Made by a program: the position numbers and the translations under genes. From the IMG/VR virus record IMGVR_UViG_3300028392_000061: a stretch of 64,000 bases of DNA. One strand, written 5' to 3'. Positions 655-44,588 of the stretch are shown piece after piece. The notes beneath the pieces were generated by a model. The model worked only from the letters and a program-made list of their open reading frames with translations, made no database searches and was not told the DNA's origin. Source of the DNA: an uncultured virus (IMG/VR IMGVR_UViG_3300028392_000061). Its lineage: Duplodnaviria > Heunggongvirae > Uroviricota > Caudoviricetes. Numbering within the stretch: position 1 is the stretch's first letter; each line of letters opens with the position of its first letter.

Positions 655-699
655 AGTGTATCATTTATCTTATGATTTTGTCAACATAAATGTTATAAT
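655..699. promoter_or_regulatory. divergent SigA-type promoters
   Basis: Minus: TTGACA (684-679)-18 nt-TACACT (660-655). Plus: extended -10 TGTTATAAT (691-699). Confidence 0.7.
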
Positions 700-734
700 T
701 AACTTATTACACATGCTTTACATGGAGGTCAATT

Positions 735-5934: not shown

Positions 5935-6178
5935 CAGTATATTTCATCCCCTCTATTTCACATGGTGTTCCATAAGACATGATTAATTGTCTAATTAAAA
6001 GAAGATAATCCATTACAGCGCCCCGCTGATTTTCACTATATTCCATAATATTAGATTCATACACAGTTAAAGCAAGATAATTTGGTCTTGCTCTAACATC
6101 TAAGATGAGGCCTTTAACAGGAACTTTAACATCCCTAATTTTTTTTGCCATATCAATTGTGTACGATATTTTTACCAT
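5900..6178 (-). CDS. hypothetical protein
   Basis: ORF track; operon packing. Confidence 0.7.
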   Translation of the reverse strand: MVKISYTIDMAKKIRDVKVPVKGLILDVRARPNYLALTVYESNIMEYSENQRGAVMDYLLLIRQLIMSYGTPCEIEGMKYTDEQARRQRRNT

Positions 6179-6479
6179 GTGCCTTTTTTAACTGCTTCCA
6201 TATCTCAAGATCTTTATGTGAATTATGTTGTTTGTCTGGTCTTCCAAGATCCATATAGACCCCGCCCCAAACGCCCTTTTCTTTATTTGCCACGCCTTGT
6301 GCGTGACACATTTTAATTACAGGACAATGCAAACATACTTGATCAGCTTGTTTAGCTAATTCTTTATCTGTTTCATAAACATCGTAAAACCAATCAATTG
6401 GCATACCTTTGCATGCTGCTAAATGATACCATTTAACATCTTGCTCGTCTAAGCCTAGTTGACTAAATAAATCTGGCAT
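6153..6479 (-). CDS. whiB: WhiB-family Fe-S transcription factor
   Basis: AAC...CLHCPVIKMC...GVWGG. Confidence 0.93.
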   Translation of the reverse strand: MPDLFSQLGLDEQDVKWYHLAACKGMPIDWFYDVYETDKELAKQADQVCLHCPVIKMCHAQGVANKEKGVWGGVYMDLGRPDKQHNSHKDLEIWKQLKKAHGKNIVHN

Positions 6480-9241: not shown

Positions 9242-9697
9242 TTATTTCTCCTTTAATATTTTTACTATTTCATGAAATTTATCAAAATTACAAACGTTTC
9301 TTCCAAAGTTTGCAAATCTTGATGTGATTACTATATTGTCTTTTGTATAATCACCATTTGCATCTATTTTATCAATAGAAGGGGCTAAAGGATGTTTAGG
9401 CATCCAATCAGGGTGATCCTTGTATAGTAGTCCTAAATCTAATTGTACACCAAACCAATAACAACGCCCGTCTTGTTTTTCCCAAATTTCTTTTAATTCT
9501 TCTGGTGTAACTATAATTTTTGCTGGTATCCAAGGTCTTTGATTTTCTCCAGAGGGCCCGCCAACTGATGACCCTTTGCCTTCCATTCTTCTTTTATTTG
9601 TTGAAGAATTTATGACATTCCAATTACCATCTCTATCTTGCCTAACACCATTAGACAAAATAGATGACCATAACTTTTTAAAATAATCTCTTTTCAT
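9242..9697 (-). CDS. HNH-like (beta-beta-alpha-Me) endonuclease
   Basis: QDGRCYW...PSIDKIDANGDYTKDNIV...N motif; AGAAAGG SD before ATG 9697. Confidence 0.75.
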   Translation of the reverse strand: MKRDYFKKLWSSILSNGVRQDRDGNWNVINSSTNKRRMEGKGSSVGGPSGENQRPWIPAKIIVTPEELKEIWEKQDGRCYWFGVQLDLGLLYKDHPDWMPKHPLAPSIDKIDANGDYTKDNIVITSRFANFGRNVCNFDKFHEIVKILKEK

Positions 9698-9709
9698 TTT
9701 ACCTTTCTG

Positions 9710-9780
9710 TACCCCCGACACGATTCGAACGTGCGTCCAACGGGTAGAAACCGTATGCTCATCCACTGAGCTACGGGGGC
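9710..9780 (-). tRNA. tRNA-Arg(TCT)
   Basis: GCCCCCG/CGGGGGT acceptor, GCTC/GAGC D arm, TT-TCT-AC loop, TTCGAAT T loop. Confidence 0.93.
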
Positions 9781-11437: not shown

Positions 11438-12475
11438 CTATGAATTAGATCTACCGTGTTGATCTGAACGGTTTCCATACCCCGCTGATGGCTGTCCATC
11501 TCTCTGTGGTGGTGAATTATATGTTGATTTCCATCCAGTGTCTCCCATGCGATCACCAAAGTTTGTTCCAGAAACTATATCCCCTGTTGGTTCAAATACG
11601 CCATCCCAAATAGATGTTGAATCTTTTGTTGGAACAGGATCTCCGCCTTTTACAATAGGCTCATTTACTGCAATTGCAGACATAGCTTCTTCTGCATGTG
11701 CTTTAGTTGTATAACAACCAATTACTTGACCAGTTCCTACTTTAGTAATAGCATATCCGCCTTGGCAATCTGGAACATTGTATTCAAGTTTAAATCCATT
11801 GCCCCCGCCTAATCTTCCAGCGCCTGCTGATTCTTTTTCAATTTTATTTTCTCTATTGACTATTGCACGAGACCATGCAAATCCTGCATCTCCGCCCCAA
11901 GCATTCCACATAATCTTTCCATTAGAAGGATCATTCCAGTTCTTTCCTTTTTTATCAACTTCGTGTCTTGAAAAGAAAGAGTACATTCTTTTAACTGTAT
12001 CAAGAGACATTGATCTACCTGCAACAATATCGCTTGCACGACCCCAACCTACGGGTGTTCCTGCTCCAGTTGCTAAACCTGCGTCTCTCCATTTTAATGC
12101 ACGACGTGCTGCTGCTTTCATACCTGCATTTGGTTGATAACCACCATCAGCTTTTTTGACGGGAATACAATTAGGAACAGTCTTCCCATCTTTATCTTTA
12201 GTTCCAGCATATTCATAGCCTTCCCAACATGGGCCTTGACCTTTTTCAATACATGACATACATTTTTCTGTATCTGAAATATAATGATGATCATTTCCTA
12301 AATCATCGCATCCGCAAGTCATACACTTTTTTACGCTTGCTTCTGGTTCATTGGCGTACAAAGCCGCCATTTGTGCTTGTGCTTTTTGCTTGCTTGGGTG
12401 TGTCCCAGCAACGTGTCCAGTATTTTGTGCTACTACTGAAAACTTATCTCCGTGTTGAATAATTTTATATGGCAT
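11438..12475 (-). CDS. modular protein (duplicated small domain, Cys modules, helical domain, SIWDGVF motif); probably head-associated
   Basis: AGGAG SD before ATG 12475 (MPYKII); longer track start overlaps tRNAs. Confidence 0.8.
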   Translation of the reverse strand: MPYKIIQHGDKFSVVAQNTGHVAGTHPSKQKAQAQMAALYANEPEASVKKCMTCGCDDLGNDHHYISDTEKCMSCIEKGQGPCWEGYEYAGTKDKDGKTVPNCIPVKKADGGYQPNAGMKAAARRALKWRDAGLATGAGTPVGWGRASDIVAGRSMSLDTVKRMYSFFSRHEVDKKGKNWNDPSNGKIMWNAWGGDAGFAWSRAIVNRENKIEKESAGAGRLGGGNGFKLEYNVPDCQGGYAITKVGTGQVIGCYTTKAHAEEAMSAIAVNEPIVKGGDPVPTKDSTSIWDGVFEPTGDIVSGTNFGDRMGDTGWKSTYNSPPQRDGQPSAGYGNRSDQHGRSNS

Positions 12476-12499
12476 GATACTCCTATTATAACATATTTG

Positions 12500-12570
12500 C
12501 TCCCTGACCTGGACTCGAACCAAGATACCCGCCTCCAAAGGGCGGTGTCCTACCGTTAGACGATCTGGGA
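12500..12570 (-). tRNA. tRNA-Gln(TTG)
   Basis: TCCCAGA/TCAGGGA acceptor (one mismatch), CCGCC-CTTTGGA-GGCGG, TTCGAGT T loop. Confidence 0.92.
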
Positions 12571-12575
12571 ATATG

Positions 12576-12646
12576 AGCGAATAGCGAGAATTGAACTCGC
12601 ACATTAACCTTGGCAAGGTTACGCACTACCACTATGCAATATTCGC
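12576..12646 (-). tRNA. tRNA-Gly(GCC)
   Basis: GCGAATA/TATTCGC, TAACC-TTGCCAA-GGTTA, GCGAG-TTCAATT-CTCGC. Confidence 0.95.
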
Positions 12647-12649
12647 AGG

Positions 12650-12761
12650 GGCTATAGGTAGTATTCCAGCACCAAATGACGCTGCCCTATCTCACCCAAA
12701 CTCTTACGTATCGGGTCTGTTATATGTAACTATACCATTCTAAGGTGTGCTACCTATAGCC
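12650..12761 (-). ncRNA. unidentified 112-nt multi-stem RNA in tRNA cluster
   Basis: Perfect 12-bp closing stem GGCTATAGGTAG/CTACCTATAGCC enclosing four hairpins; 3 nt from the tRNA on each side. Confidence 0.75.
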
Positions 12762-12764
12762 TTG

Positions 12765-12838
12765 TAGAACAGGTAGGACTCGAACCTACGATTACCGAAT
12801 TATGAGTTCGGGGCTTTAACCAACTAAGCTACTGTTCC
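12765..12838 (-). tRNA. tRNA with CAT anticodon (elongator Met or Ile2)
   Basis: GGAACAG/CTGTTCT, CCGAA-CTCATAA-TTCGG, GTAGG-TTCGAGT-CCTAC; no initiator GGG/CCC anticodon stem. Confidence 0.92.
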
Positions 12839-12848
12839 TAAAAAAATA

Positions 12849-13091
12849 TTAGTAATCTTTGCCTTTTGATTTATTTTCTATTAACTTATCTCTTTCATCA
12901 ATAGTTTCATATGCAAACTTTGATAAAGCTTCTTCATTTTGATTATAGTGGTGTCCGCAAAACATTAGTTGTCCTGTTACACCTTTTACTAAAACCAAAG
13001 CTTCTGCAGAACATTGATCACAACGATCAAGTGGACTTAATAAATATTTTACTTCTTCTACAATTTCTTTAATTTCTGCTGTCATATTCAT
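12849..13091 (-). CDS. small Zn-binding protein (DRCDQC...FCGHH)
   Basis: CxxC...CxHH motif. Confidence 0.8.
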   Translation of the reverse strand: MNMTAEIKEIVEEVKYLLSPLDRCDQCSAEALVLVKGVTGQLMFCGHHYNQNEEALSKFAYETIDERDKLIENKSKGKDY

Positions 13092-13126
13092 AATTATACT
13101 CTTTCTAGTAGTTGGTTAATAATTTG

Positions 13127-13198
13127 CTGGTCTGGCAGGCCTCGATCCTGCGACTTCCGAATTAACAGTTCGGCATTCTACCACTGAATTACAGACCA
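13127..13198 (-). tRNA. tRNA-Asn(GTT)
   Basis: TGGTCTG/CAGACCA, CCGAA-CTGTTAA-TTCGG, atypical T loop ATCGAGG. Confidence 0.9.
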
Positions 13199-13203
13199 AT
13201 GAC

Positions 13204-13491
13204 TTACTCTACTTTACCAAATGGATTCTTGTCAATCATTTTTAACAAATCATCTGGACTATTAATTAAACGACGTTGCGCTTCAAATTTTCCAAGTTGT
13301 ACTATTTCATCAGCAATTGTATGCATCATATCAAGTAAACCTAACGCATATCTTTTATTTTTTGGATCTGCTTCTTCAACTTCTGCTTGCATATTTACAG
13401 CAGATTGTGTAAAATATTCGCAAAGTTGTGTAAGCGAAATATAAATATCTTGATCATCTTCAATTGTTTTCATTGTGCCATTTGCTAGCAT
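13204..13491 (-). CDS. hypothetical protein
   Basis: AAAGGA SD; promoter upstream. Confidence 0.75.
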   Translation of the reverse strand: MLANGTMKTIEDDQDIYISLTQLCEYFTQSAVNMQAEVEEADPKNKRYALGLLDMMHTIADEIVQLGKFEAQRRLINSPDDLLKMIDKNPFGKVE

Positions 13492-13521
13492 ATTTTTCCT
13501 TTGTTAGTAGTTATAGGTGTT

Positions 13522-13550
13522 ATTCTATCAGAGCACACGCATGCTGTCAA
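13522..13550 (-). promoter_or_regulatory. SigA-type promoter upstream of tRNA region
   Basis: TTGACA-17 nt-TAGAAT with TG extension. Confidence 0.7.
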
Positions 13551-15375
13551 TAGGGAATTCATCTTCATCTTCTTCTATTCCTAGATAGTTCCGCAAACTT
13601 GATGGCATCTCTTCCCTATCTGGAAGTTTAATAGTTCTATTTCTAATTAATCTTTCATCTGATTCTTTTCTTAATTGATCAAGTTCATCTGAAAAAACAC
13701 CAGCATAAGTATAAAGTTCTACTTCAGGGTCTATGTCCCTAGGGGTTAGGGCTACCGAGTTGTAGATAGCCCCGCAGACGGCATCTGAGAGGTCCTTAGA
13801 GCCTTTTCTAGGGTGGTCTACCTTATCCTTTACAATGCGTAGTTGAAGCAGTTCATCAACCAGCAGTTGAATTCTGGGCCCATCTACACGTTCTTCGGTA
13901 ATACAAAGAGACATATCTTCATAGTGCTTTTTAGCAACTGATAATGTTTGACAATTCATGCCATGAGCTTTTAACTGTTGCATCATATCGTGTGAATTCC
14001 AACGGTCAAATGTAACCATTTTAATATTAAAACCACGTTCTCTTAAACTAATTATATAATCTTTTACTTCTGTAAAATCTACTGATTTTGATGCTGTTGG
14101 TGTCCAAAATCTGACTGCATCTACTATAATACGTGGGGCAGCTTCTTTCATCTTATCCCCAATTTTCATTGTAACCCAATTATGAACATGTGCCAGTGCG
14201 ACTGCACAGTGGTCATGCTTTTGTGCAAGGTCAACGTGAATGTAATACCATTTTTCTGAATTTGGTTTGAATGTATCAGCAAAGCGTCCATATGAATCTA
14301 CATTTAAATTAGGATTTGAAAATGCTTTTTCAATTACTGCACGATTTTTAAAGAAAGCATCTGTTGCATCTGGTGGCATACATGCAAAACGAGATAGCGC
14401 ATCTGTTGGGTCTGTATAAAAATCAATAGTAAAATCAGTTATTTTACGTGTAGGGTTTACTTCCCATGTTGGTCTTTTAAGTGCATATACTCTCGGAATC
14501 TTGTAGGAAACAATGTGGTCTTCTTCCCATTCCATTTCAAATTCATTGCCTTCCATTCCATCTGGCAGTTCTGGATCTACTTTAAATTTCCAATGACGTA
14601 ATACAACTTCTTTTTCAGCAATAACATCATTATATCTTTGTTGAATGTAATCGTTTTTAAAACGTGGAAATGAAAGCAATATTACTTTACCAAAATCTGG
14701 AAAACGAGAGTTTACGGATGCACGATACATTTTATAAATAGATGATGCTGTTTTTGCTTGTTCATTTCCAGATGTTGATTCCAAATCAAAACCTGAAATT
14801 TCGTCAAGAATAACAACAAGAACGTTATATCCTTCCCAAGCTTCTCTTTCAGAGTGACCTGAGTGAACTGTAACACCTTTATCAAATTCAACCATGTTGG
14901 CCTTTGATATGTATTTGCCTTGAAACCAAGGTGACTTTTCAATACGCTGATTAAAGCCTTTAAAGAATACTCGGTTTGCTTGAACAGCGTTAATAGCAAT
15001 ATTAATAATATCAATTGCATCGCCTGGTGGCTTTCCATAATACCTAGCGGGGTCTGTAAGGCAAAGAAGTAAGTGCACCATATATGCACAAGCAATTGTA
15101 GATGTATAGTCCTTACCAGAACCCTTACCCAGCTGTAGAATAACTTCATTACATGTTTGTTTAAAGATCTTTCGACCTTCATCTTCCCCGTAAATTTTAA
15201 TTAAGGTTTCTAACTTATAAATTTGAGTAGATGCTTTAATCATTGTGTATTGATGTTCTGATAAAGGAGGCAATCCTAAATAATCTTTACCTGTTACAAA
15301 TTCTTCAAGTGGTGCTGGTTTTTCTACAAATTCATCACCTTCAAGTGCATCTAAAAAGATATTGAATTCTGACAT
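13528..15375 (-). CDS. terL: terminase large subunit
   Basis: Walker A GKGSGKD, Walker B VILDE, nuclease HVDLA, DHP..GSKDLSDA. Confidence 0.93.
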   Translation of the reverse strand: MSEFNIFLDALEGDEFVEKPAPLEEFVTGKDYLGLPPLSEHQYTMIKASTQIYKLETLIKIYGEDEGRKIFKQTCNEVILQLGKGSGKDYTSTIACAYMVHLLLCLTDPARYYGKPPGDAIDIINIAINAVQANRVFFKGFNQRIEKSPWFQGKYISKANMVEFDKGVTVHSGHSEREAWEGYNVLVVILDEISGFDLESTSGNEQAKTASSIYKMYRASVNSRFPDFGKVILLSFPRFKNDYIQQRYNDVIAEKEVVLRHWKFKVDPELPDGMEGNEFEMEWEEDHIVSYKIPRVYALKRPTWEVNPTRKITDFTIDFYTDPTDALSRFACMPPDATDAFFKNRAVIEKAFSNPNLNVDSYGRFADTFKPNSEKWYYIHVDLAQKHDHCAVALAHVHNWVTMKIGDKMKEAAPRIIVDAVRFWTPTASKSVDFTEVKDYIISLRERGFNIKMVTFDRWNSHDMMQQLKAHGMNCQTLSVAKKHYEDMSLCITEERVDGPRIQLLVDELLQLRIVKDKVDHPRKGSKDLSDAVCGAIYNSVALTPRDIDPEVELYTYAGVFSDELDQLRKESDERLIRNRTIKLPDREEMPSSLRNYLGIEEDEDEFPIDSMRVL

Positions 15376-33887: not shown

Positions 33888-34015
33888 ATACCGAACCTTG
33901 AATCTCTCTTGATCATCCATCTATTCCCACACATAATGCAATACAGTTCAACACGGATTTTTTGGGAATAAACCCTGTCTACAACAACTCTGCCATTACA
34001 TTTATTACAATACAT
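33833..34015 (-). CDS. zinc-ribbon protein
   Basis: CNKCNG...CIMCG. Confidence 0.75.
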   Translation of the reverse strand: MYCNKCNGRVVVDRVYSQKIRVELYCIMCGNRWMIKRDSRFGIWLSKNEERLHQNYGTSI

Positions 34016-34034
34016 TATTTAGTTTTTCTGTATC

Positions 34035-34337
34035 CTACTTAGAAGCTGGCTTCTTAGCAGTAGCTTTCTTTGGCTTTAAAGCCGCATCTAGCTTTTTAGT
34101 GAAAGCAGAAGTTGCAAGTTCTGCAACTACGCCAAACGCAGGATCCTTTTTGTTAAAATAGCGTAGCGCTACTGGAACAAGGGATGCCCATAGAGAGTTT
34201 GCTACTAGCAACCACTCGTGTCCACCAAAACTTAGAATAGTCAAATTTGTTGTTGCTGCAACAATTGTTGTTGCTCCAATAATTTGACCTACCAAGTTAC
34301 GAACATAAGATTCAATCATTGCTTGATTAATCTTCAT
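34035..34337 (-). CDS. holin-like membrane protein
   Basis: Hydrophobic segments, LRYFNKKDPAFG, basic tail; AAGGAG SD. Confidence 0.65.
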   Translation of the reverse strand: MKINQAMIESYVRNLVGQIIGATTIVAATTNLTILSFGGHEWLLVANSLWASLVPVALRYFNKKDPAFGVVAELATSAFTKKLDAALKPKKATAKKPASK

Positions 34338-41700: not shown

Positions 41701-43645
41701 CCGTAGGTACGGTAACAACTCCAGAAACATTGTATCCACTTAATGACATTCCAGCTATTGTTATCTGATCTCCAGTATATAAGCCATGTGCGCCTGTAGT
41801 AGTATAAGTCATTGTTGTGCCGTTTCCAGTTGCAGTGACACCTGTAAGTGAATATACAGTAGTTGAAACATTTATATCTTCACCTGTACCACTAGATGTA
41901 AATGCAGTACTTACTGAGTTTACATCATTTGGAGCATTAACATTTAATGTAACTGGGGAGTTTGGAGTAATTGTTATTACAGATGAATAACCTTGAGAAC
42001 TACCCGTAATATCTAAAAATCTAGCTCTAACATATCTTAAATTTAAATTAGAAGCAAGAACAATTGCAGGATTTAAAGTTCCTGAATACACAACTGAATA
42101 ACCAGTTGAAGATGAAGTTGTTGATTCTGAAATTTCTATTAATGTAAGCGGATCAGTTGGAGCTGTATATGAAATTGTATATCCATTATTAATTGGTGAT
42201 CCTGTAATAACTGGGGGAGTTTGACTTGAAACATATGACGCTACAGATGTTGGACTTGCAGATGTGCTTAAATTGCCAAACGAGTCTTGTACTTTTACAC
42301 TAATTGCAGATATAGATGTTGAAGCTAGTCCAAACAATGCTTGATTTTGCGACCAAGTAAACGCATATGAATTACTAGTTACTGGCACACTTATATTTTT
42401 AGTAACAGAATTTTCAGTAAAAGATATTATAAAATTTTGAGCATATTGATTTGCTGTATCTGCTGAATTCCAAGTCCAAGAAAGATTAAGTGTTGATCCA
42501 GACCATACTGTTCCATACGGGGAAGATGATGAAAATACAACTGGATTTGGAACAATTAAAGTATTACCAGACTTTTTATTAGTAATTGCACCTGCTATAT
42601 CAGAGCTAGTTGCAGAAAATGAACCATCAGAATACCAGTAGTTTTTAGAATCAATGTATAAACCAGTTTTATCAGTGCCATTTATATTAGAACCAATAGT
42701 AACTGTTCCCGCAGTTACAGTTCCCGCAAAATAAGCTTTACCTGTTATAGCATCTATATAAAATTCTTTTGCGCCACTATTAAATCCTGCCAAACCCGTT
42801 TTATTTAATATGACACCTGTACCAGTTGTAGTCCCATTAACAACATCTAGCAATCCTGCATCTGATCCAAAATCTCCCGCAAAAATTGAACCTCCATCTA
42901 ACAATATGTCTCCATTGTTATTGGTTGTTATATGATTTGTTCCTGCTGATGAAAATCCTGGAGTTGTTATATAAATTGGTTCTGAATATTCAGAGTATAC
43001 AGATTGTCCATCAGAATCAATTGTTTTTGCACGAATTTTAATACTATATGTTTGATTTGGATTTAAATTTCTAATTTTTAAAGACGTTCTATTTGATGAA
43101 TTAAGATCAGATGGGATAGGAGCATCTGTTGCACCAGTTGGAGTATTTGACCCAGCGGCAGAAGAATTTTTAATTACTCCACCATCAATTGTTAAGCCAG
43201 AAGGCGAACTTGGTTTTACTGGACCAGAGCCTGCATTTGATGATGTTGAAGTATTTGATGATGTTGAACTATTTGTATTTGATGTAAAACTTGAAAGTGG
43301 ATCATAATATGTTGTTGTTTTTGCTGAAGGCATAACAATAGAATTGACTGGATTTGCAGTAGAATTAGAATAATTTCTTAATGTACCAGCTTCTGAACCA
43401 TTATAAGGTCTTCCAGTTAAATAATATTTTTTACTGGCTGAAAGACCAGTAAATCTGTATGTTATGCTTGCACCAATTGCATATGGCAAAGGTATTGTAT
43501 ATGATTTTTGAATTGGAGCACTAACTAAATCTGTTGCAGTCATTATAAATATAATTTTTGTACAGTTTGTTGGGCGGGTAAAAGTAATATCTACATAAGT
43601 AGTTCCTACTGAACAATGCATTCCAGCTAAAGTACCTACTGCCAT
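38753..43645 (-). CDS. large tail fibre/host-specificity protein
   Basis: 1630 aa, Ser/Thr/Gly-rich; FN3-like segments; three IxxWxI repeats. Confidence 0.85.
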   Translation of the reverse strand: MAVGTLAGMHCSVGTTYVDITFTRPTNCTKIIFIMTATDLVSAPIQKSYTIPLPYAIGASITYRFTGLSASKKYYLTGRPYNGSEAGTLRNYSNSTANPVNSIVMPSAKTTTYYDPLSSFTSNTNSSTSSNTSTSSNAGSGPVKPSSPSGLTIDGGVIKNSSAAGSNTPTGATDAPIPSDLNSSNRTSLKIRNLNPNQTYSIKIRAKTIDSDGQSVYSEYSEPIYITTPGFSSAGTNHITTNNNGDILLDGGSIFAGDFGSDAGLLDVVNGTTTGTGVILNKTGLAGFNSGAKEFYIDAITGKAYFAGTVTAGTVTIGSNINGTDKTGLYIDSKNYWYSDGSFSATSSDIAGAITNKKSGNTLIVPNPVVFSSSSPYGTVWSGSTLNLSWTWNSADTANQYAQNFIISFTENSVTKNISVPVTSNSYAFTWSQNQALFGLASTSISAISVKVQDSFGNLSTSASPTSVASYVSSQTPPVITGSPINNGYTISYTAPTDPLTLIEISESTTSSSTGYSVVYSGTLNPAIVLASNLNLRYVRARFLDITGSSQGYSSVITITPNSPVTLNVNAPNDVNSVSTAFTSSGTGEDINVSTTVYSLTGVTATGNGTTMTYTTTGAHGLYTGDQITIAGMSLSGYNVSGVVTVPTESTTTFTISGSQQGSGTGGVAQYSSISYIVKLVYTGNAAKVGYFYFSPTATNITSQTFTITKADLFNQFGTHYSSFSGLLISVNSSGVRSSGKSITTFSRTSSLASYTPSISGFNVADGYQIVFDFSSTNATYGEIYQKRTVWGSITSPIDYFNGTYVSGSSGSNTLVITSVKDNALNTIATAGNINGALPTGYKVTGNGIAPNTYVTAVSYTSPNFTLTLNNNLTSTPSAGSSFKINGLVYSGLSPADITNNLYEDFYIICKFYDDYDNSSLISNSVTVHPVDPGAIGTISTAVQVSGTSGAVYVGDAASSGKRVVIKAIPTDPYVGIFAFDGTNAAATTSIIANPTLAASGGYTFKTTSAQIGDWSINDTKIQNTLGSSSNYVGLSATGTYSFWAGSTTSGGDSSASFLVTPTGQVTARKISIIGDGSSSDLINAANVFKVTGQGALTATSANITGVITAQSGSVTGNLLIGGSTYSGTALTQTITAVSIPSTNTARYVLSASHSLTTNSTVYISGVTGASVGSFSGIYKIAAVNVVANSFDVTITGIAGTAVIATTAPIAQVIDITTGYVLNSSGITFNTSGTKGITTIDSSTGLFQTTSAKIGGWLISTSTNPGTIYSTSGTGTILLDSTNARISASTTGYYVGMAAPTASSSVVLWAGNQGVANTANAFTVLADGTVKIGGGASINNVLASTVTSGAAAGATALQTIPSNYLTTSTSISGGQITTGTIKNGSFPGTGSTQASDGSGFSVSGMSINLDNSSITSPSFRIVGSGVTGQTAGSAYFKGDISGSTGNIAGWTISTNSISKSATYSDPIFGTTTLTTTLGASGNINLVSSGGGYLSVGDQSLLTVSNTTSQSSISPGYIGFKSTTTLFGIPPTSFSMNISPGDDFINFYWIGGTQSGGYSQVKPRWFNYASTGERTANSAAVFDTAMQNLRPLVVYTDGTQYLGSTDYFSTTQATTPSTTTGVNGDFFFSTA

Positions 43646-43661
43646 TTAATTTACCCCCTTA

Positions 43662-44588
43662 CTATAATATTTGAACGTAATATTCAACATCCAAAGGTGT
43701 TCCATAAATCTTAGCAATTGGTGTTGAAAGTACAGATTTACTAATTAAATAATCTTCACTTGTAAGTTCTGCAGTGGATGATGTTTTTATTGCATCAATT
43801 GTAACTGAAGCTGTATTATCCGTAGTAATTCTGACCGTTTCAATTGTACTATTAAATAAAACATCTGATGGAAAGGGGGCGCTTAAAATTTGATATCCTG
43901 AGTTATCTTCTAGAGTGTAAGTAAAAACAAAAGAATTATTATCTGTATCTACAAGCGTTATTGTTAAAACTCCCGCCACTGTATTATAAGCTAATATTTT
44001 TAATGTATCTAAACTAGAATATCCTAGTAGACTAAAAGCAAATGTGTTGTTTTCATACTTTGTATTTTGTGCAAGATCTACTGAAAACCCTCCAATTCTT
44101 GGAGATGCTTCACCTTGTGGAGAATAACCAGTTAAATATACTGTGCCTTGATTTAAAATATTTTGTGATTGATCATTTATACTTGCAACCCAATTTGAAA
44201 GATCAGAAAATGCAGTAATAATTCTATCATTTCTATTTGCAACATCTGTTATTTTTGAATCTGGATACAATCCAATTTCATAAATATTTGCATATATACT
44301 TTCTGGCAAAGTTCCTCTAACTATAATTAAATCTGGATTATTACTAGTTGCAGATTTGTAAGTTTTTAAAGATACGGGAATCCTCATTGTTTCAAAATTT
44401 AATTCAATATCAGAAACAGATGGCGCAGTATTTATTGCTCCTAGTGCCATATCTGATGCCCAATTAGAACGCACTCCAGAAAGATATTGCAAAAGAACTT
44501 TTCTGCCATTTGTAGTAATAAGATTTTCAGATCTGCCTATTTCTATTCCATTTTGCTTAAATATATAAGTGCCTTTAAAAGTTAACAT
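43662..44588 (-). CDS. minor tail/baseplate protein
   Basis: NLITTNGR...IYEIGLY; position in tail module. Confidence 0.7.
   Translation of the reverse strand: MLTFKGTYIFKQNGIEIGRSENLITTNGRKVLLQYLSGVRSNWASDMALGAINTAPSVSDIELNFETMRIPVSLKTYKSATSNNPDLIIVRGTLPESIYANIYEIGLYPDSKITDVANRNDRIITAFSDLSNWVASINDQSQNILNQGTVYLTGYSPQGEASPRIGGFSVDLAQNTKYENNTFAFSLLGYSSLDTLKILAYNTVAGVLTITLVDTDNNSFVFTYTLEDNSGYQILSAPFPSDVLFNSTIETVRITTDNTASVTIDAIKTSSTAELTSEDYLISKSVLSTPIAKIYGTPLDVEYYVQIL

Follow-up and report, generated by a model that had tools for sequence, protein, structure and literature searches.

In the 64,000-nt stretch of uncultured viral DNA analysed here, which we call the window, a 112-nt RNA gene lies on the minus strand between a tRNA-Met(CAT) gene on its 5' side and a tRNA-Gly(GCC) gene on its 3' side (Table 1). 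An earlier note on this DNA, made from the letters alone, had drawn attention to the element and its position between two tRNAs; both the position and the minus-strand sequence that it quoted agree with the window. The spacing of 3 nt that it gave for each side is exact toward tRNA-Gly, which starts at 12646, and is 2-3 nt toward tRNA-Met, whose end is placed at 12764 by ARAGORN and at 12765 by Rfam. The perfect 12-bp closing helix (P1) described in the note was likewise borne out: folded in silico, the RNA has a minimum free energy of -37 kcal/mol (z = -3.15), equalled by none of 200 shuffled sequences, and its G-U pairs favour the minus, tRNA-sense strand, as the note had argued from wobble pairs.

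Table 1. Features of the RNA gene and its surroundings in the window (positions in window numbering, RNA nucleotides counted from the 5' end of the RNA)
Feature	Position	Strand	RNA nt	Basis or remark
Promoter-like TTGACA-18-TAGAGT upstream of tRNA-Asn	13206..13235	minus		consensus scan only
Upstream tRNA-Met(CAT)	12764..12838	minus		ARAGORN, Rfam
5' spacer CAA, tRNA-Met to RNA	12762..12764	minus		flank comparison
Whole RNA gene	12650..12761	minus		112 nt, delimited by closing helix; folded in silico
P1 5' strand GGCUAUAGGUAG	12750..12761	minus	1-12	partner is 12650-12661
Invariant core ACCUUAGAAUGGUAUAGUUAC	12726..12746	minus	16-36	antisense to 23S
P2 hairpin top UAUA-GUUACA-UAUA	12721..12734	minus	28-41	covers part of core
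Hairpin P3, conserved loop GUAAGA	12694..12716	minus	46-68	predicted fold and alignment read by hand
Conserved junction GAGAUAGGG	12685..12693	minus	69-77	conserved columns, alignment A1
Hairpin P4 CAGCGUC-AUUU-GGUGCUG	12667..12684	minus	78-95	
Conserved junction GAAUA, part of GUGCUGGAAU	12662..12666	minus		alignment A1
P1 3' strand CUACCUAUAGCC	12650..12661	minus	101-112	fold and comparative pairing
3' spacer CCU, RNA to tRNA-Gly	12647..12649	minus		flank comparison
Downstream tRNA-Gly(GCC)	12575..12646	minus		ARAGORN, Rfam

The interior of the RNA required more revision. Of four hairpins previously proposed within the closing helix, P3 and P4 have partial comparative support, and the other two are unconserved: ACC-TTAGAAT-GGT belongs to the subtype of the window only, its relatives showing GTT or different letters, and GTTA-CATA-TAAC is one among several registers and is missing from many relatives. 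TTAGAAT, once read as a T-loop, instead belongs to the conserved rRNA-complementary core discussed below, and the supposed GNRA tetraloop GTAA instead falls within the 6-nt loop GUAAGA, which is conserved in one subfamily. Toward the 3' strand of P1, the region of the GAAUA junction holds the invariant positions T94 G95 G96 A97 A98 T99 of alignment A1.

A promoter-like sequence upstream of tRNA-Asn is a candidate start for a transcript carrying the tRNAs and the RNA, and no terminator-like site was found on the minus strand between it and position 12300. A Pfam scan of 75 window ORFs (11 + 64) identified WhiB and DUF7455 genes, which make an actinobacterium the probable host; genes for HNH endonucleases and for RecA are also present.

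A family of structured RNAs in actinophage contigs

The feature is a genuine structured RNA gene. The covariance model R1 scores the window copy at 124.7 bits (E = 2e-33), and the family comprises at least 55 distinct sequences, 77-136 nt long, in related uncultured actinophage contigs, with all members on the tRNA/terminase strand. At E <= 0.001, R1 matches 53 of 80 terminase-related loci, every one on the terminase strand, and 15 of the 27 loci that lack a match have less than 500 nt downstream of the terminase gene, going by locus lengths read by eye. Conservation and covariation in related phages are strong. With 25 members in a sequence-only alignment, 98.6% of P1 cells are paired, 11 of the 12 pairs have changed on both sides, and the covariation score is 0.278 against 0.140 in shuffles, none of 500 being as high. 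With 55 distinct members aligned by the model, 98.9% of cells are paired and all ten modelled pairs are compensatory; a control in which the partners were shifted by 1-3 columns gave at most 50.7% pairing. The 29 distinct closing helices comprise 337 Watson-Crick pairs, 10 G-U, no A-C and one other pair, a count biased by a finder that permitted G-U and not A-C; the model-made alignment has 21 G-U/U-G cells in the closing helix against 6 non-standard ones.

The remaining helices are more uneven. The top of P2 is paired in 93-95% of cells by pairs so nearly invariant that there is little covariation, and the hairpin recurs among the minimum-free-energy folds of family members. In an alignment fitted to the R1 model, only 57-79% of P3 cells are paired, with all eight modelled pairs changed on both sides, and 84.6% of P4 cells are paired, the outer four pairs almost invariant and the inner ones variable. 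The middle modules of the RNA change quickly, even among phages whose terminases are 96-97% identical.

The element does not fall into a described class. Among the 4227 models of Rfam 15, which include self-cleaving ribozymes, 6S, Y RNA and freshwater and phage motifs, none matched the element (12650-12761), either at gathering score or with the limit relaxed to E <= 10, and no family was assigned, a result that together with the conservation and covariation in relatives supports the suggestion of a new RNA class. The one overlapping entry, AbsR25 on the plus strand, reached 19.2 bits (threshold 47, E = 1.2) over a span that is mainly tRNA antisense. The description of the element as something other than a cloverleaf also held: ARAGORN, run over 12641-12770 with introns allowed, tmRNA detection on and a lowered threshold, called no tRNA, intron-containing tRNA or tmRNA, and the Rfam tRNA and tmRNA models gave nothing over the element at E <= 10. 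When the 801-nt region 12450-13250 was compared with cultured phages, only tRNAs matched; no cultured phage carrying either form of the core was found, and a literature search confined to sources outside subscription journals returned no description of such an RNA. The product looks to be a phage RNA, small, stable and non-coding, whose family had not been described before.

Across the family, a tRNA lies within 12 nt upstream at 32 of 48 loci, downstream at 28 and on both sides at 24. The 16 loci with no upstream tRNA, several of which have a promoter-like -10 there, tell against tRNA processing as a required route of release and point to an independent RNA gene and not an appendage of tRNA clusters. 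Among 56 distinct combinations of element and flank, the 5' flank is CAA in 29, with A at -1 in 43, and the 3' flank has C at +1 in 45 and reads CCT in 28. Closing helices run from 11 to 14 bp, with 12 bp in 31 of 47 members, and G is the first base in all 47. The RNA thus shows the features of an RNase P/RNase Z substrate, namely a helix of about 12 bp, a G at +1 and a C as 3' discriminator-like base, and its release through ordinary tRNA processing is plausible. Contigs from four RNA runs (5% of sampled words) carried tRNA genes only; these are the conserved tRNAs of other organisms and so are uninformative on expression of 12650-12761.

Complementarity of the core to helix 69 of 23S rRNA

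The sole invariant stretch of the family RNA is a core complementary to the region of helix 69 (H69). Its consensus, CUUAGGAUG[G/U]UAUAGUUAC, is the reverse complement of 23S nt 1910-1929/31, a target that takes in the last pair of the H69 5' strand, the complete loop and 3' strand of H69, and the 5-7 bases that follow. Set against actinobacterial 23S nt 1910-1931 (E. coli numbering), the window copy has one base missing and one A-C mismatch. The relevant 23S sequence, taken from the rRNA operons of actinobacterial replicons within a plasmid collection, reads GGTGGTAACTATAACCATCCTAAGG in five of five Actinobacteria from five orders, where E. coli has GGCCGTAACTATAACGGTCCTAAGG, and the GGAUGG of the phage core is the complement of the actinobacterial CCAUCC. 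Over 55 members, agreement with the actinobacterial antisense is 0.8-0.99 per column across 20 nt, apart from two indel columns within that span at which it is near 0.5; outside the core it is at most 0.5 on the 5' side and at most 0.2 on the 3' side.

Several comparisons bear on whether such a match could arise by chance. The core scores 32-33 against a shuffle mean of 17 (sd 1.8, maximum 27), a value reached by none of 5000 shuffles, and in 40 of 47 members the best rRNA match is antisense to E. coli 23S 1909/10-1929/31. Scored against E. coli rRNA alone, whole interiors give 20-30, which overlaps the top of the shuffle distribution (mean 20.7, maximum 30). Once the core is masked, rRNA complementarity drops to chance, and the best match lies near H69 in only 2 of 47 members. 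An extended pairing of GCCAUUC.GUGC, GGAAU and ACCCGA with 23S nt 1936-1968 was considered and rejected, as core-masked scores equal those of shuffles. At the level of sequence, the base complementarity of the core to H69 is established as going beyond chance.

In co-folding, the mean net gain is -5.5 kcal/mol with the actinobacterial target and -2.9 kcal/mol with the E. coli target, compared with -0.3 kcal/mol for members with shuffled interiors, and the actinobacterial target is the better of the two for 41 of 47 members. The window copy gains only -2.3 kcal/mol, in a fold that opens part of P1, and the intramolecular pairing probability of the core averages 0.46-0.57. The complement is never perfect in the family, a base being missing or mismatched opposite 1919-1921, and A to G changes at two core positions retain a G-U pair with the target. 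A variant host 23S that would restore a perfect complement was rejected as a general explanation since such variants are very rare, the examples being one 619-nt actinobacterial-like fragment and one metagenome contig.

A second, unrelated set of viral contigs carries the corresponding E. coli-type antisense. A scan of viral contigs returned 61 loci of this kind, only one of them with rDNA flanks; the perfect 20-mer accounts for 8 of them and a C-to-U form, still able to pair there through G-U, for 26. Of 41 distinct contexts, 27 place the 5' half of this core in a stem and 26 place UAUAGUUA in the hairpin loop. At both loci examined, the module starts 6 nt past the stop codon of a major head/virion structural gene. 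The partner strands of these hairpins vary and the core is constant, which argues for a sequence-specific outside target. Among cultured phages, annotated matches to the E. coli-type 20-mer all fall in 23S rRNA, the others in unannotated records or stretches. The actinophage family and the second viral set carry the actinobacterial and the E. coli-type form of H69, respectively, the hosts being presumed ones. Two other readings of the core, as a mini-ORF AUG-NNN-UAG and as an internal extended -10 promoter TGnTATAGT, were rejected because both features are missing from E. coli-type cores (GGACCGUUAUAG).

Possible roles of the RNA

We propose, with a probability of about 0.45 and hence as a tentative reading, that tRNA enzymes release a stable RNA that pairs with H69 of the host large subunit. 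H69 is the central intersubunit bridge and touches the A- and P-site tRNAs. The RNA would be transcribed as part of the tRNA operon, and its 12-bp helix, with G first and C after, may resemble a tRNA acceptor stem stacked on its T stem, by virtue of which RNase P would cut at the 5' end of the RNA. The 3' end could be set by RNase Z or exonucleases, possibly with subsequent CCA addition, or by RNase P acting on the next tRNA. The core, partly exposed by a weak A-U-rich hairpin, would then pair with H69 of the large-subunit rRNA, in free 50S subunits or in newly made 23S, with one target base near A1919/C1920 bulged in the duplex. In the weakest step of the proposal, binding at this bridge and its tRNA contacts would hinder subunit joining or 50S maturation, or would tether the 50S subunit. 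The variable middle hairpins might contribute stability or a second contact. In mature ribosomes H69 carries pseudouridines and methyl groups, and there is structure at bases 1920-1929, so access may be restricted to immature or free 50S subunits; moreover, a phage requires working ribosomes, which makes a purely inhibitory role awkward.

A wider reading, which we hold to be doubtful, joins the two viral sets: phages of different bacterial phyla would make 'anti-H69' RNAs, a class of antisense RNAs aimed at the ribosome, whose 20-nt seed tracks the H69 of the host phylum. In freshwater actinophages the seed would sit on a mimic of the top half of a tRNA, a 12-bp acceptor/T-like minihelix that is perhaps CCA-tailed, in the place of the D arm; tRNA enzymes would excise the RNA, which could then bind the 50S subunit where tRNA and H69 meet. 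Other phages would present the seed as a kissing hairpin within the mRNA for the major capsid protein, in its 3' untranslated region. Late in infection, both arrangements might sequester large subunits or put them out of action, either as an RNA anti-association factor or by retaining subunits on the capsid message.

Pairing with H69 must be weighed against other uses of a conserved core. The core of a structured phage RNA might be kept for a phage or host protein or for an internal tertiary contact, the H69 match being left over from an rDNA fragment captured long ago or a product of convergence. We think this unlikely, even though the core participates in a recurrent local hairpin, one base is always missing or mismatched relative to a perfect complement, and the conserved junctions GAGAUAGGG and GUGCUGGAAU have no rRNA match. 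Against it, two phage groups that are unrelated, neither of them rDNA-flanked, share the same 20-nt limits of the match, and between them they carry the two natural H69 variants. The constancy of the core beside differing hairpin partners, and the A to G changes that preserve G-U pairing with the target, tell against it as well.

It is improbable that the RNA is instead a tRNA-shaped decoy, along the lines of the tRNA mimic or nuclease decoy named in the earlier note. Freed from the tRNA operon, its minihelix would titrate host anticodon nucleases, enzymes that modify tRNA, RNase P/Z or the CCA-adding enzyme, irrespective of rRNA. A 12-bp helix with G as its first base, a C conserved at +1 and the embedding of the gene in tRNA arrays all suit such a function, as does the quick turnover of the middle modules, which is of the kind seen in arms-race loci. 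A decoy would nevertheless leave unexplained why the invariant part is the H69 complement; ARAGORN and the Rfam tRNA model find no cloverleaf, T arm or anticodon-like loop, and the capsid-linked relatives of the core are without the minihelix.

Less probable still is a guide function, in which the core would steer a protein such as a nuclease, a modifying enzyme, RNase III or RNase P to 23S or rDNA, so that, for instance, the ribosomes or chromosome of the host might be cut at a site conserved in all bacteria. Known guides carry their guide at an end of the RNA, whereas the core is internal; it is also without the ACCA tail that an RNase P external guide needs, and an informal look at the loci examined found no gene consistently linked to the RNA. 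These points outweigh, in our judgement, the attraction of a complement of fixed place, 19-21 nt long, to a sequence that is among the most conserved in bacteria, with one target base consistently unpaired, in a window that encodes HNH endonucleases and RecA.

An element acting at the level of DNA, whether a miniature inverted-repeat mobile element, a packaging or attachment site near the terminase gene or an rDNA-like target of a homing endonuclease, is very improbable. Perfect 12-bp terminal inverted repeats, flanking tRNAs that vary between genomes and a location downstream of the terminase gene would suit it. However, the presence of G-U and near-absence of A-C pairs indicate that only one strand folds, the arms covary freely, unlike a protein-bound repeat, and the element always points the same way with respect to tRNAs and promoters. 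The element is also single-copy in the window, its CAA/CCT flanks show no target duplication, and no integrase family was found among the 75 ORFs scanned.

The earlier note's suggestion of a Y-RNA-like scaffold, here a bacterial-type (YrlA-like) RNA organising a Ro60 ring, is essentially refuted. PMC4201824 reports phage-encoded Y RNAs, gives the Ro60-binding motif of Y RNAs as GNCGAAN0-1G and describes M. smegmatis YrlA as cleaved by RNase P and then subject to CCA addition. The long terminal helix and tRNA context of the window RNA are in keeping with this class, but neither YrlA nor any other Y RNA matched at E <= 10, T and D arms are lacking, the absence of CGAA from the 112 nt means that the Ro60-binding motif is missing, and no TROVE (Ro60) family member was found among the 11 + 64 window ORFs compared with Pfam, in a phage genome that may exceed the window.

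Significance and comparison with known systems

If the preferred reading, pairing with H69, is true, the RNA would be the first natural phage RNA to recognise ribosomal RNA by base pairing at helix 69, which is the hub where subunits join, where decoding and recycling take place and where antibiotics act, and would represent a new viral route to handling host translation. It would account for one type of 'orphan' stable RNA found in the tRNA clusters of phages and, since Actinobacteria and other phyla call for different seeds, could serve as a natural model for antisense inhibitors with species selectivity. Read as cautiously as possible, the data still describe a new and well-supported structured RNA family of abundant freshwater phages, with a sharply defined conserved motif.

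Parallels to individual parts of the proposal exist in several systems. RNase P also acts on substrates other than tRNAs, among them 4.5S RNA, tmRNA and the C4 RNA of P1/P7; there a long terminal helix with a 5' leader suffices for cleavage, which supports the 5' maturation proposed here. The analogy is one of processing only, the sequences being unrelated and without an rRNA complement. YrlA resembles the window RNA in its length of about 100 nt and in a terminal stem formed from the ends of the RNA, and differs from it in having GNCGAA, a mimic of the T and D arms and a nearby Ro60 gene. Closer in genomic setting are species 1 and species 2 of T4 (rnaC and rnaD; 139 and 119 nt), which likewise lie directly after a tRNA gene on the tRNA strand, at annotated spacers of 1-6 nt comparable to the few nucleotides seen here, and which mature together with the tRNAs. 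R1 matches neither with filters off, which speaks against homology, and the rnaC fold has a tRNA-type T arm (GGGUUCGAAUCCC) that the window RNA lacks; to our knowledge, the function of rnaC and rnaD is still unexplained.

With respect to the ribosome, tRNA-shaped ribosome-binding elements occur in plant RNA viruses such as turnip crinkle virus, whose 3' element is a viral RNA structure proposed to sit on the large subunit, and the capsid-linked relatives of the core also lie in a 3' untranslated region. That element, likened here by description, belongs to a eukaryotic RNA virus and has no Watson-Crick complement to H69. The kissing-loop antisense RNAs of plasmids and phages, such as CopA/CopT, RNA I/RNA II and Sok/hok, act on mRNAs or primers of their own replicon, whereas the target proposed here is host rRNA and the gene is not antisense-encoded at its target. 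The likeness is therefore one of mechanism only, in which a hairpin loop pairs with a target loop and the adjoining strand extends the duplex, and this is exactly the layout that the capsid-linked relatives of the core display.

The element and its setting in the window

The element is real and belongs to a new family of structured RNAs. Its minus-strand sequence reads as the earlier note gave it, and ARAGORN and Rfam confirm the precise placement between two tRNA genes that had been claimed for it. Folding of the 112 nt gave a minimum free energy of -37 kcal/mol (z = -3.15; 0 of 200 shuffles folded equally well), with the proposed 12-bp closing helix (P1) and three or four inner hairpins; the opposite strand, at -32.8 kcal/mol, is slightly weaker in absolute energy. 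In line with the earlier note, no cloverleaf was detected: ARAGORN, run with introns allowed, the tmRNA search on and a lowered threshold, found nothing in it. Rfam matched it to no family, either at the gathering score across the whole window or at E ≤ 10 within 12400-13300, and its novelty is therefore kept.

The window is phage DNA with a G+C content of 34%. Genes for endolysin, Hsp20, a ferritin-like protein and an HNH endonuclease lie close to the element, and those for portal, capsid and tape-measure proteins, DNA polymerase III alpha, primase, helicase and RecA lie farther off; the WhiB and DUF7455 genes point to an actinobacterial host. A consensus scan placed a promoter-like site directly ahead of tRNA-Asn and, within 12300-13600, showed no terminator-like site after it on the minus strand; on this evidence the element is probably transcribed as part of a multi-gene unit, from which it would have to be processed. 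Elsewhere, an HNH/endonuclease VII-like gene (longest frame 9242-9766, minus) overlaps the tRNA-Arg(TCT) gene (9709-9780, minus); its true start is probably farther downstream, and the arrangement is reminiscent of the T4 tRNA cluster, in which homing endonuclease genes are lodged.

Features of the window, and of other viral contigs carrying the E. coli version of the helix 69 complement
Feature	Coordinates	Strand	Remarks
RNA element	12761-12650	minus	reads GGCUAUAGGUAG...CUACCUAUAGCC
tRNA-Met(CAT)	12764/5-12838	minus	ARAGORN, Rfam
tRNA-Gly(GCC)	12575/6-12646	minus	ARAGORN, Rfam
tRNA-Gln		minus	after tRNA-Gly; ARAGORN, Rfam
tRNA-Asn		minus	upstream of tRNA-Met; ARAGORN, Rfam
DUF7455 gene	12849-13091	minus	80-aa protein, Cys/His pattern; within tRNA cluster, between tRNA-Asn and tRNA-Met
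Terminase large subunit	13528-15375		near element
WhiB gene	6156-6479
E. coli-type elements	viral contigs among L228-L322, e.g. L289:1866-1960, L304 ~695-720		core CTTAGGAC(C/T)GTTATAGTTAC

A modular RNA family

Exact searches with both helix arms recovered seven viral contigs, in all of which the element lies in a tRNA cluster, on the tRNA strand, with differing tRNA neighbours. The terminase served as a handle to fetch 80 related loci (66-100% protein identity); blastn located the element in 42 of 87 loci, and a degenerate scan for the invariant core (12726-12746 in the window) added at least 118 more. Among the matches listed, the 205 loci and the window yielded 64 distinct candidates, 47 of which measure 77-136 nt, close with a helix of 11 bp or more and are counted as members. 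The 17 left out have "helices" of 8-10 bp, most being 143-235 nt long and inside protein-coding sequence; two, L091 and the cut-off L203, are uncertain. Six more core matches lack a helix.

P1 is 98.6% paired in 25 members of the window's subtype that were aligned by sequence alone, and 11 of its 12 pairs vary on both sides there; among 55 distinct sequences aligned to the model it is 98.9% paired, with compensatory change in 10 of 10 modelled pairs. The helix of the earlier note is thus conserved in related phages, and covaries throughout or nearly so. Over the structure as a whole, the same 55 sequences are 88.4% paired, a level that none of 500 shuffles attained (72.9%). With partners slid by 1-3 columns, at most 50.7% is paired. 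This alignment was fitted to the model, and its figures for the inner hairpins P2-P4 therefore lean towards the structure. Helix length among the 47 members is 12 bp in 31, 13 bp in nine, 14 bp in six and 11 bp in one, and the first helix base is always G.

R1, the covariance model built from the 25-member alignment, matched 53 of the 80 terminase loci at E ≤ 0.001, all on the terminase strand, and three others more weakly; judging by locus lengths, 15 of the 27 loci lacking a strong match stop less than 500 nt beyond the terminase gene. The orientation earlier deduced from G-U pairs holds, wobble pairs fitting the tRNA-sense strand only. Neighbours were counted in the 48 of the 53 strong-hit loci whose 3' strand was resolved. 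A tRNA (Leu, Gln, Ile, Met or Asp) lies within 12 nt upstream in 32, a downstream tRNA, mostly Gly, is present in 28, and 24 have both. The upstream tRNA is absent in 16; several of these show a -10-like TATAAT about 7 nt before G1, and some have no tRNA within 1.5 kb. Accordingly, the element is an RNA gene in its own right, usually but not always inside tRNA arrays. Conservation extends to the flanks: among 56 distinct contexts the 5' flank is CAA in 29, position +1 is C in 45 and the 3' flank is CCT in 28. Three loci (L003-L005) carry an extended -10-like TGTATAAT directly after the element (…CCTTTTAATGTATAATTAAGTTATCATG…), about 11 nt before an ATG and with no intervening ribosome-binding site; their downstream mRNA looks leaderless or near-leaderless, as is common in Actinobacteria.

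Three parts alone are universal: P1, the core YUURGRAUG(G/U)UAUAGUUAC and a short linker that often is CAC with 3-4 further nt. All else is built of modules. At 108-125 nt, the window's subtype combines a GUAAGA-loop hairpin with the junction GAGAYAGGG, a hairpin CAGC...GCUG and GGAAU, and other subtypes, of 77-80, 101, 107, 113-120, 124-126 and 136 nt, have differing middles. The first two small hairpins of the earlier note are not conserved; what recurs instead is a weak A-U-rich hairpin, UAUA-GUUACA-UAUA, often lengthened by GGAU...AUCC. Loci L008 and L009 have terminases 96-97% identical to the window's yet a different middle module, and the variable middle seems to be swapped or very fast-evolving. 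L008, L009, L048 and L052 (terminases 83-97% identical) share the helix type and core of the window around a wholly different middle, at 124-126 nt. In variants of 119-120 nt (L001:3001-3119 and relatives), a middle insertion, AAUAUAGGU, repeats part of the P1 5' strand, so the 3' strand could pair with either copy; an alternative fold or a trace of duplication is possible. Two weak R1 matches in the window, at 43611-43710 (minus, E 0.011) and 33945-34039 (minus, E 0.34), lie inside or beside large structural genes and are probably false; no second core match was seen in the window, from which we infer that both are coreless.

Relationship of the core to helix 69 of 23S rRNA

At the level of sequence, the conserved core has a demonstrable relationship to helix 69 (H69), which we take to be 23S nt 1906-1924 (E. 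coli numbering), in a form matching the presumed host lineage. Against E. coli 23S, 16S and 5S on both strands, the best match is antisense at 23S 1907/10-1929/31 in 40 of 47 members (1910-1931 for the window RNA); the scores of 20-30 just reach the top of the shuffle range, and this test alone is weak. A core scan of a genome collection found 11 places. One is a 619-nt 23S fragment whose reverse strand holds the core exactly; its similarity is 94.7% with Tsukamurella, 89% with Streptomyces and Arthrobacter and about 78% with Proteobacteria and Firmicutes, which marks it as actinobacterial. Another is a true family member, L213:383-506 (124 nt, L008/L009 subtype), which adjoins a tRNA; its 23.8-kb contig was binned to a MAG labelled Bacteroidia, is most likely phage DNA swept into that bin and so carries no information on the host.

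Once the targets include an actinobacterial fragment, the score of the core is 32-33, a value reached by 0 of 5000 shuffles (mean 17, sd 1.8, maximum 27). The 23S of five actinobacterial orders always reads GGTGGTAACTATAACCATCCTAAGGTAGCG, that of E. coli GGCCGTAACTATAACGGTCCTAAGGTAGCG, and the family core is the reverse complement of actinobacterial nt 1910-1929 minus one base (G or U of GGAUGGUUAUAG), extending to 1931 in the window's subtype. Among the 55 distinct members, the per-column match is 0.8-0.99 within this 20-nt span, two indel columns excepted, and falls to at most 0.5 on the 5' side and 0.2 on the 3' side. These boundaries correspond to the loop of H69, the 3' strand of that helix and the bases just after it. 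Since 23S variants missing the base, and hence matching perfectly, are very rare, the design appears to include a single bulged or mismatched base opposite A1919-G1921. A MAG labelled Parasphingorhabdus (G002) holds three different 23S fragments on contigs C22, C27 and C40 (L218-L220), the last being actinobacterial by similarity with a one-base deletion in the H69 loop, which points to a contaminated bin and to a rare rRNA variant or assembly error.

When viral contigs were scanned for the antisense of the E. coli type, written as CTTAGGAC and TATAGTTAC separated by 0-3 free bases, 61 loci came up, only one with rDNA flanks. Some of the others probably match by chance or within coding sequence, and most share one architecture, a hairpin whose loop is complementary to the H69 loop. 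Eight loci carry the core as a perfect 20-mer; 26 have a C-to-U change that retains a G-U pair, and ten lack one base. In 41 distinct contexts, its 5' half is paired in a hairpin in 27 and UAUAGUUA lies in the loop in 26. Strong terminators often follow (a crude pattern caught only 16), and in the two loci examined the module starts 6 nt past a gene's stop codon, the gene coding for a major head protein in L289 and for a virion structural protein in L304. Rfam matched none of these elements. Wherever its matches in cultured-phage records are annotated, the 20-mer lies in 23S rRNA, the other matches being in records or stretches without annotation; Salmonella, Acinetobacter and Dickeya-associated records confirm it as an exact reverse complement of 23S. 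Two unrelated sets of phage contigs, with differing hairpin partners, thus share one 20-nt rRNA complement in the two natural H69 flavours, which we read as selection for the complement itself.

A possible function, and known systems

The RNA may first be released from its transcript by tRNA enzymes, because the 12 bp of P1 equal the stacked acceptor (7 bp) and T (5 bp) stems, the length measured by RNase P, RNase Z and the CCA-adding enzyme; T4 stable RNAs and M. smegmatis YrlA offer precedents. The core would then pair with H69 of free or immature large subunits, with some consequence for subunit joining or availability. The mean net gain on co-folding is modest: -5.5 kcal/mol for the actinobacterial and -2.9 for the E. 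coli target, as against -0.3 when interiors are shuffled. The window copy gains only -2.3 kcal/mol. Several points count against this mechanism: the RNA outside the core holds no rRNA complement, part of the core is paired within the RNA itself, mature ribosomes have H69 in a modified and structured state, and impairing ribosomes would be an awkward role for a phage. We put the odds that pairing with H69 is the function slightly below even (about 0.45); the remaining weight is shared by readings with another partner, a decoy or guide role, or an action at the DNA level. The function is accordingly a prediction, yet a sharply testable one.

The Y-RNA-like scaffold suggested in the earlier note is set aside, the element having failed the defining tests of a Y RNA. 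Nothing in the literature searched, which covered journals outside subscription, describes a phage RNA with complementarity to H69. By location, the closest known RNAs are T4 rnaC and rnaD, which are not homologous to the window RNA; by mechanism, the nearest are presumably the kissing-loop antisense RNAs and the tRNA-shaped viral elements that bind ribosomes.
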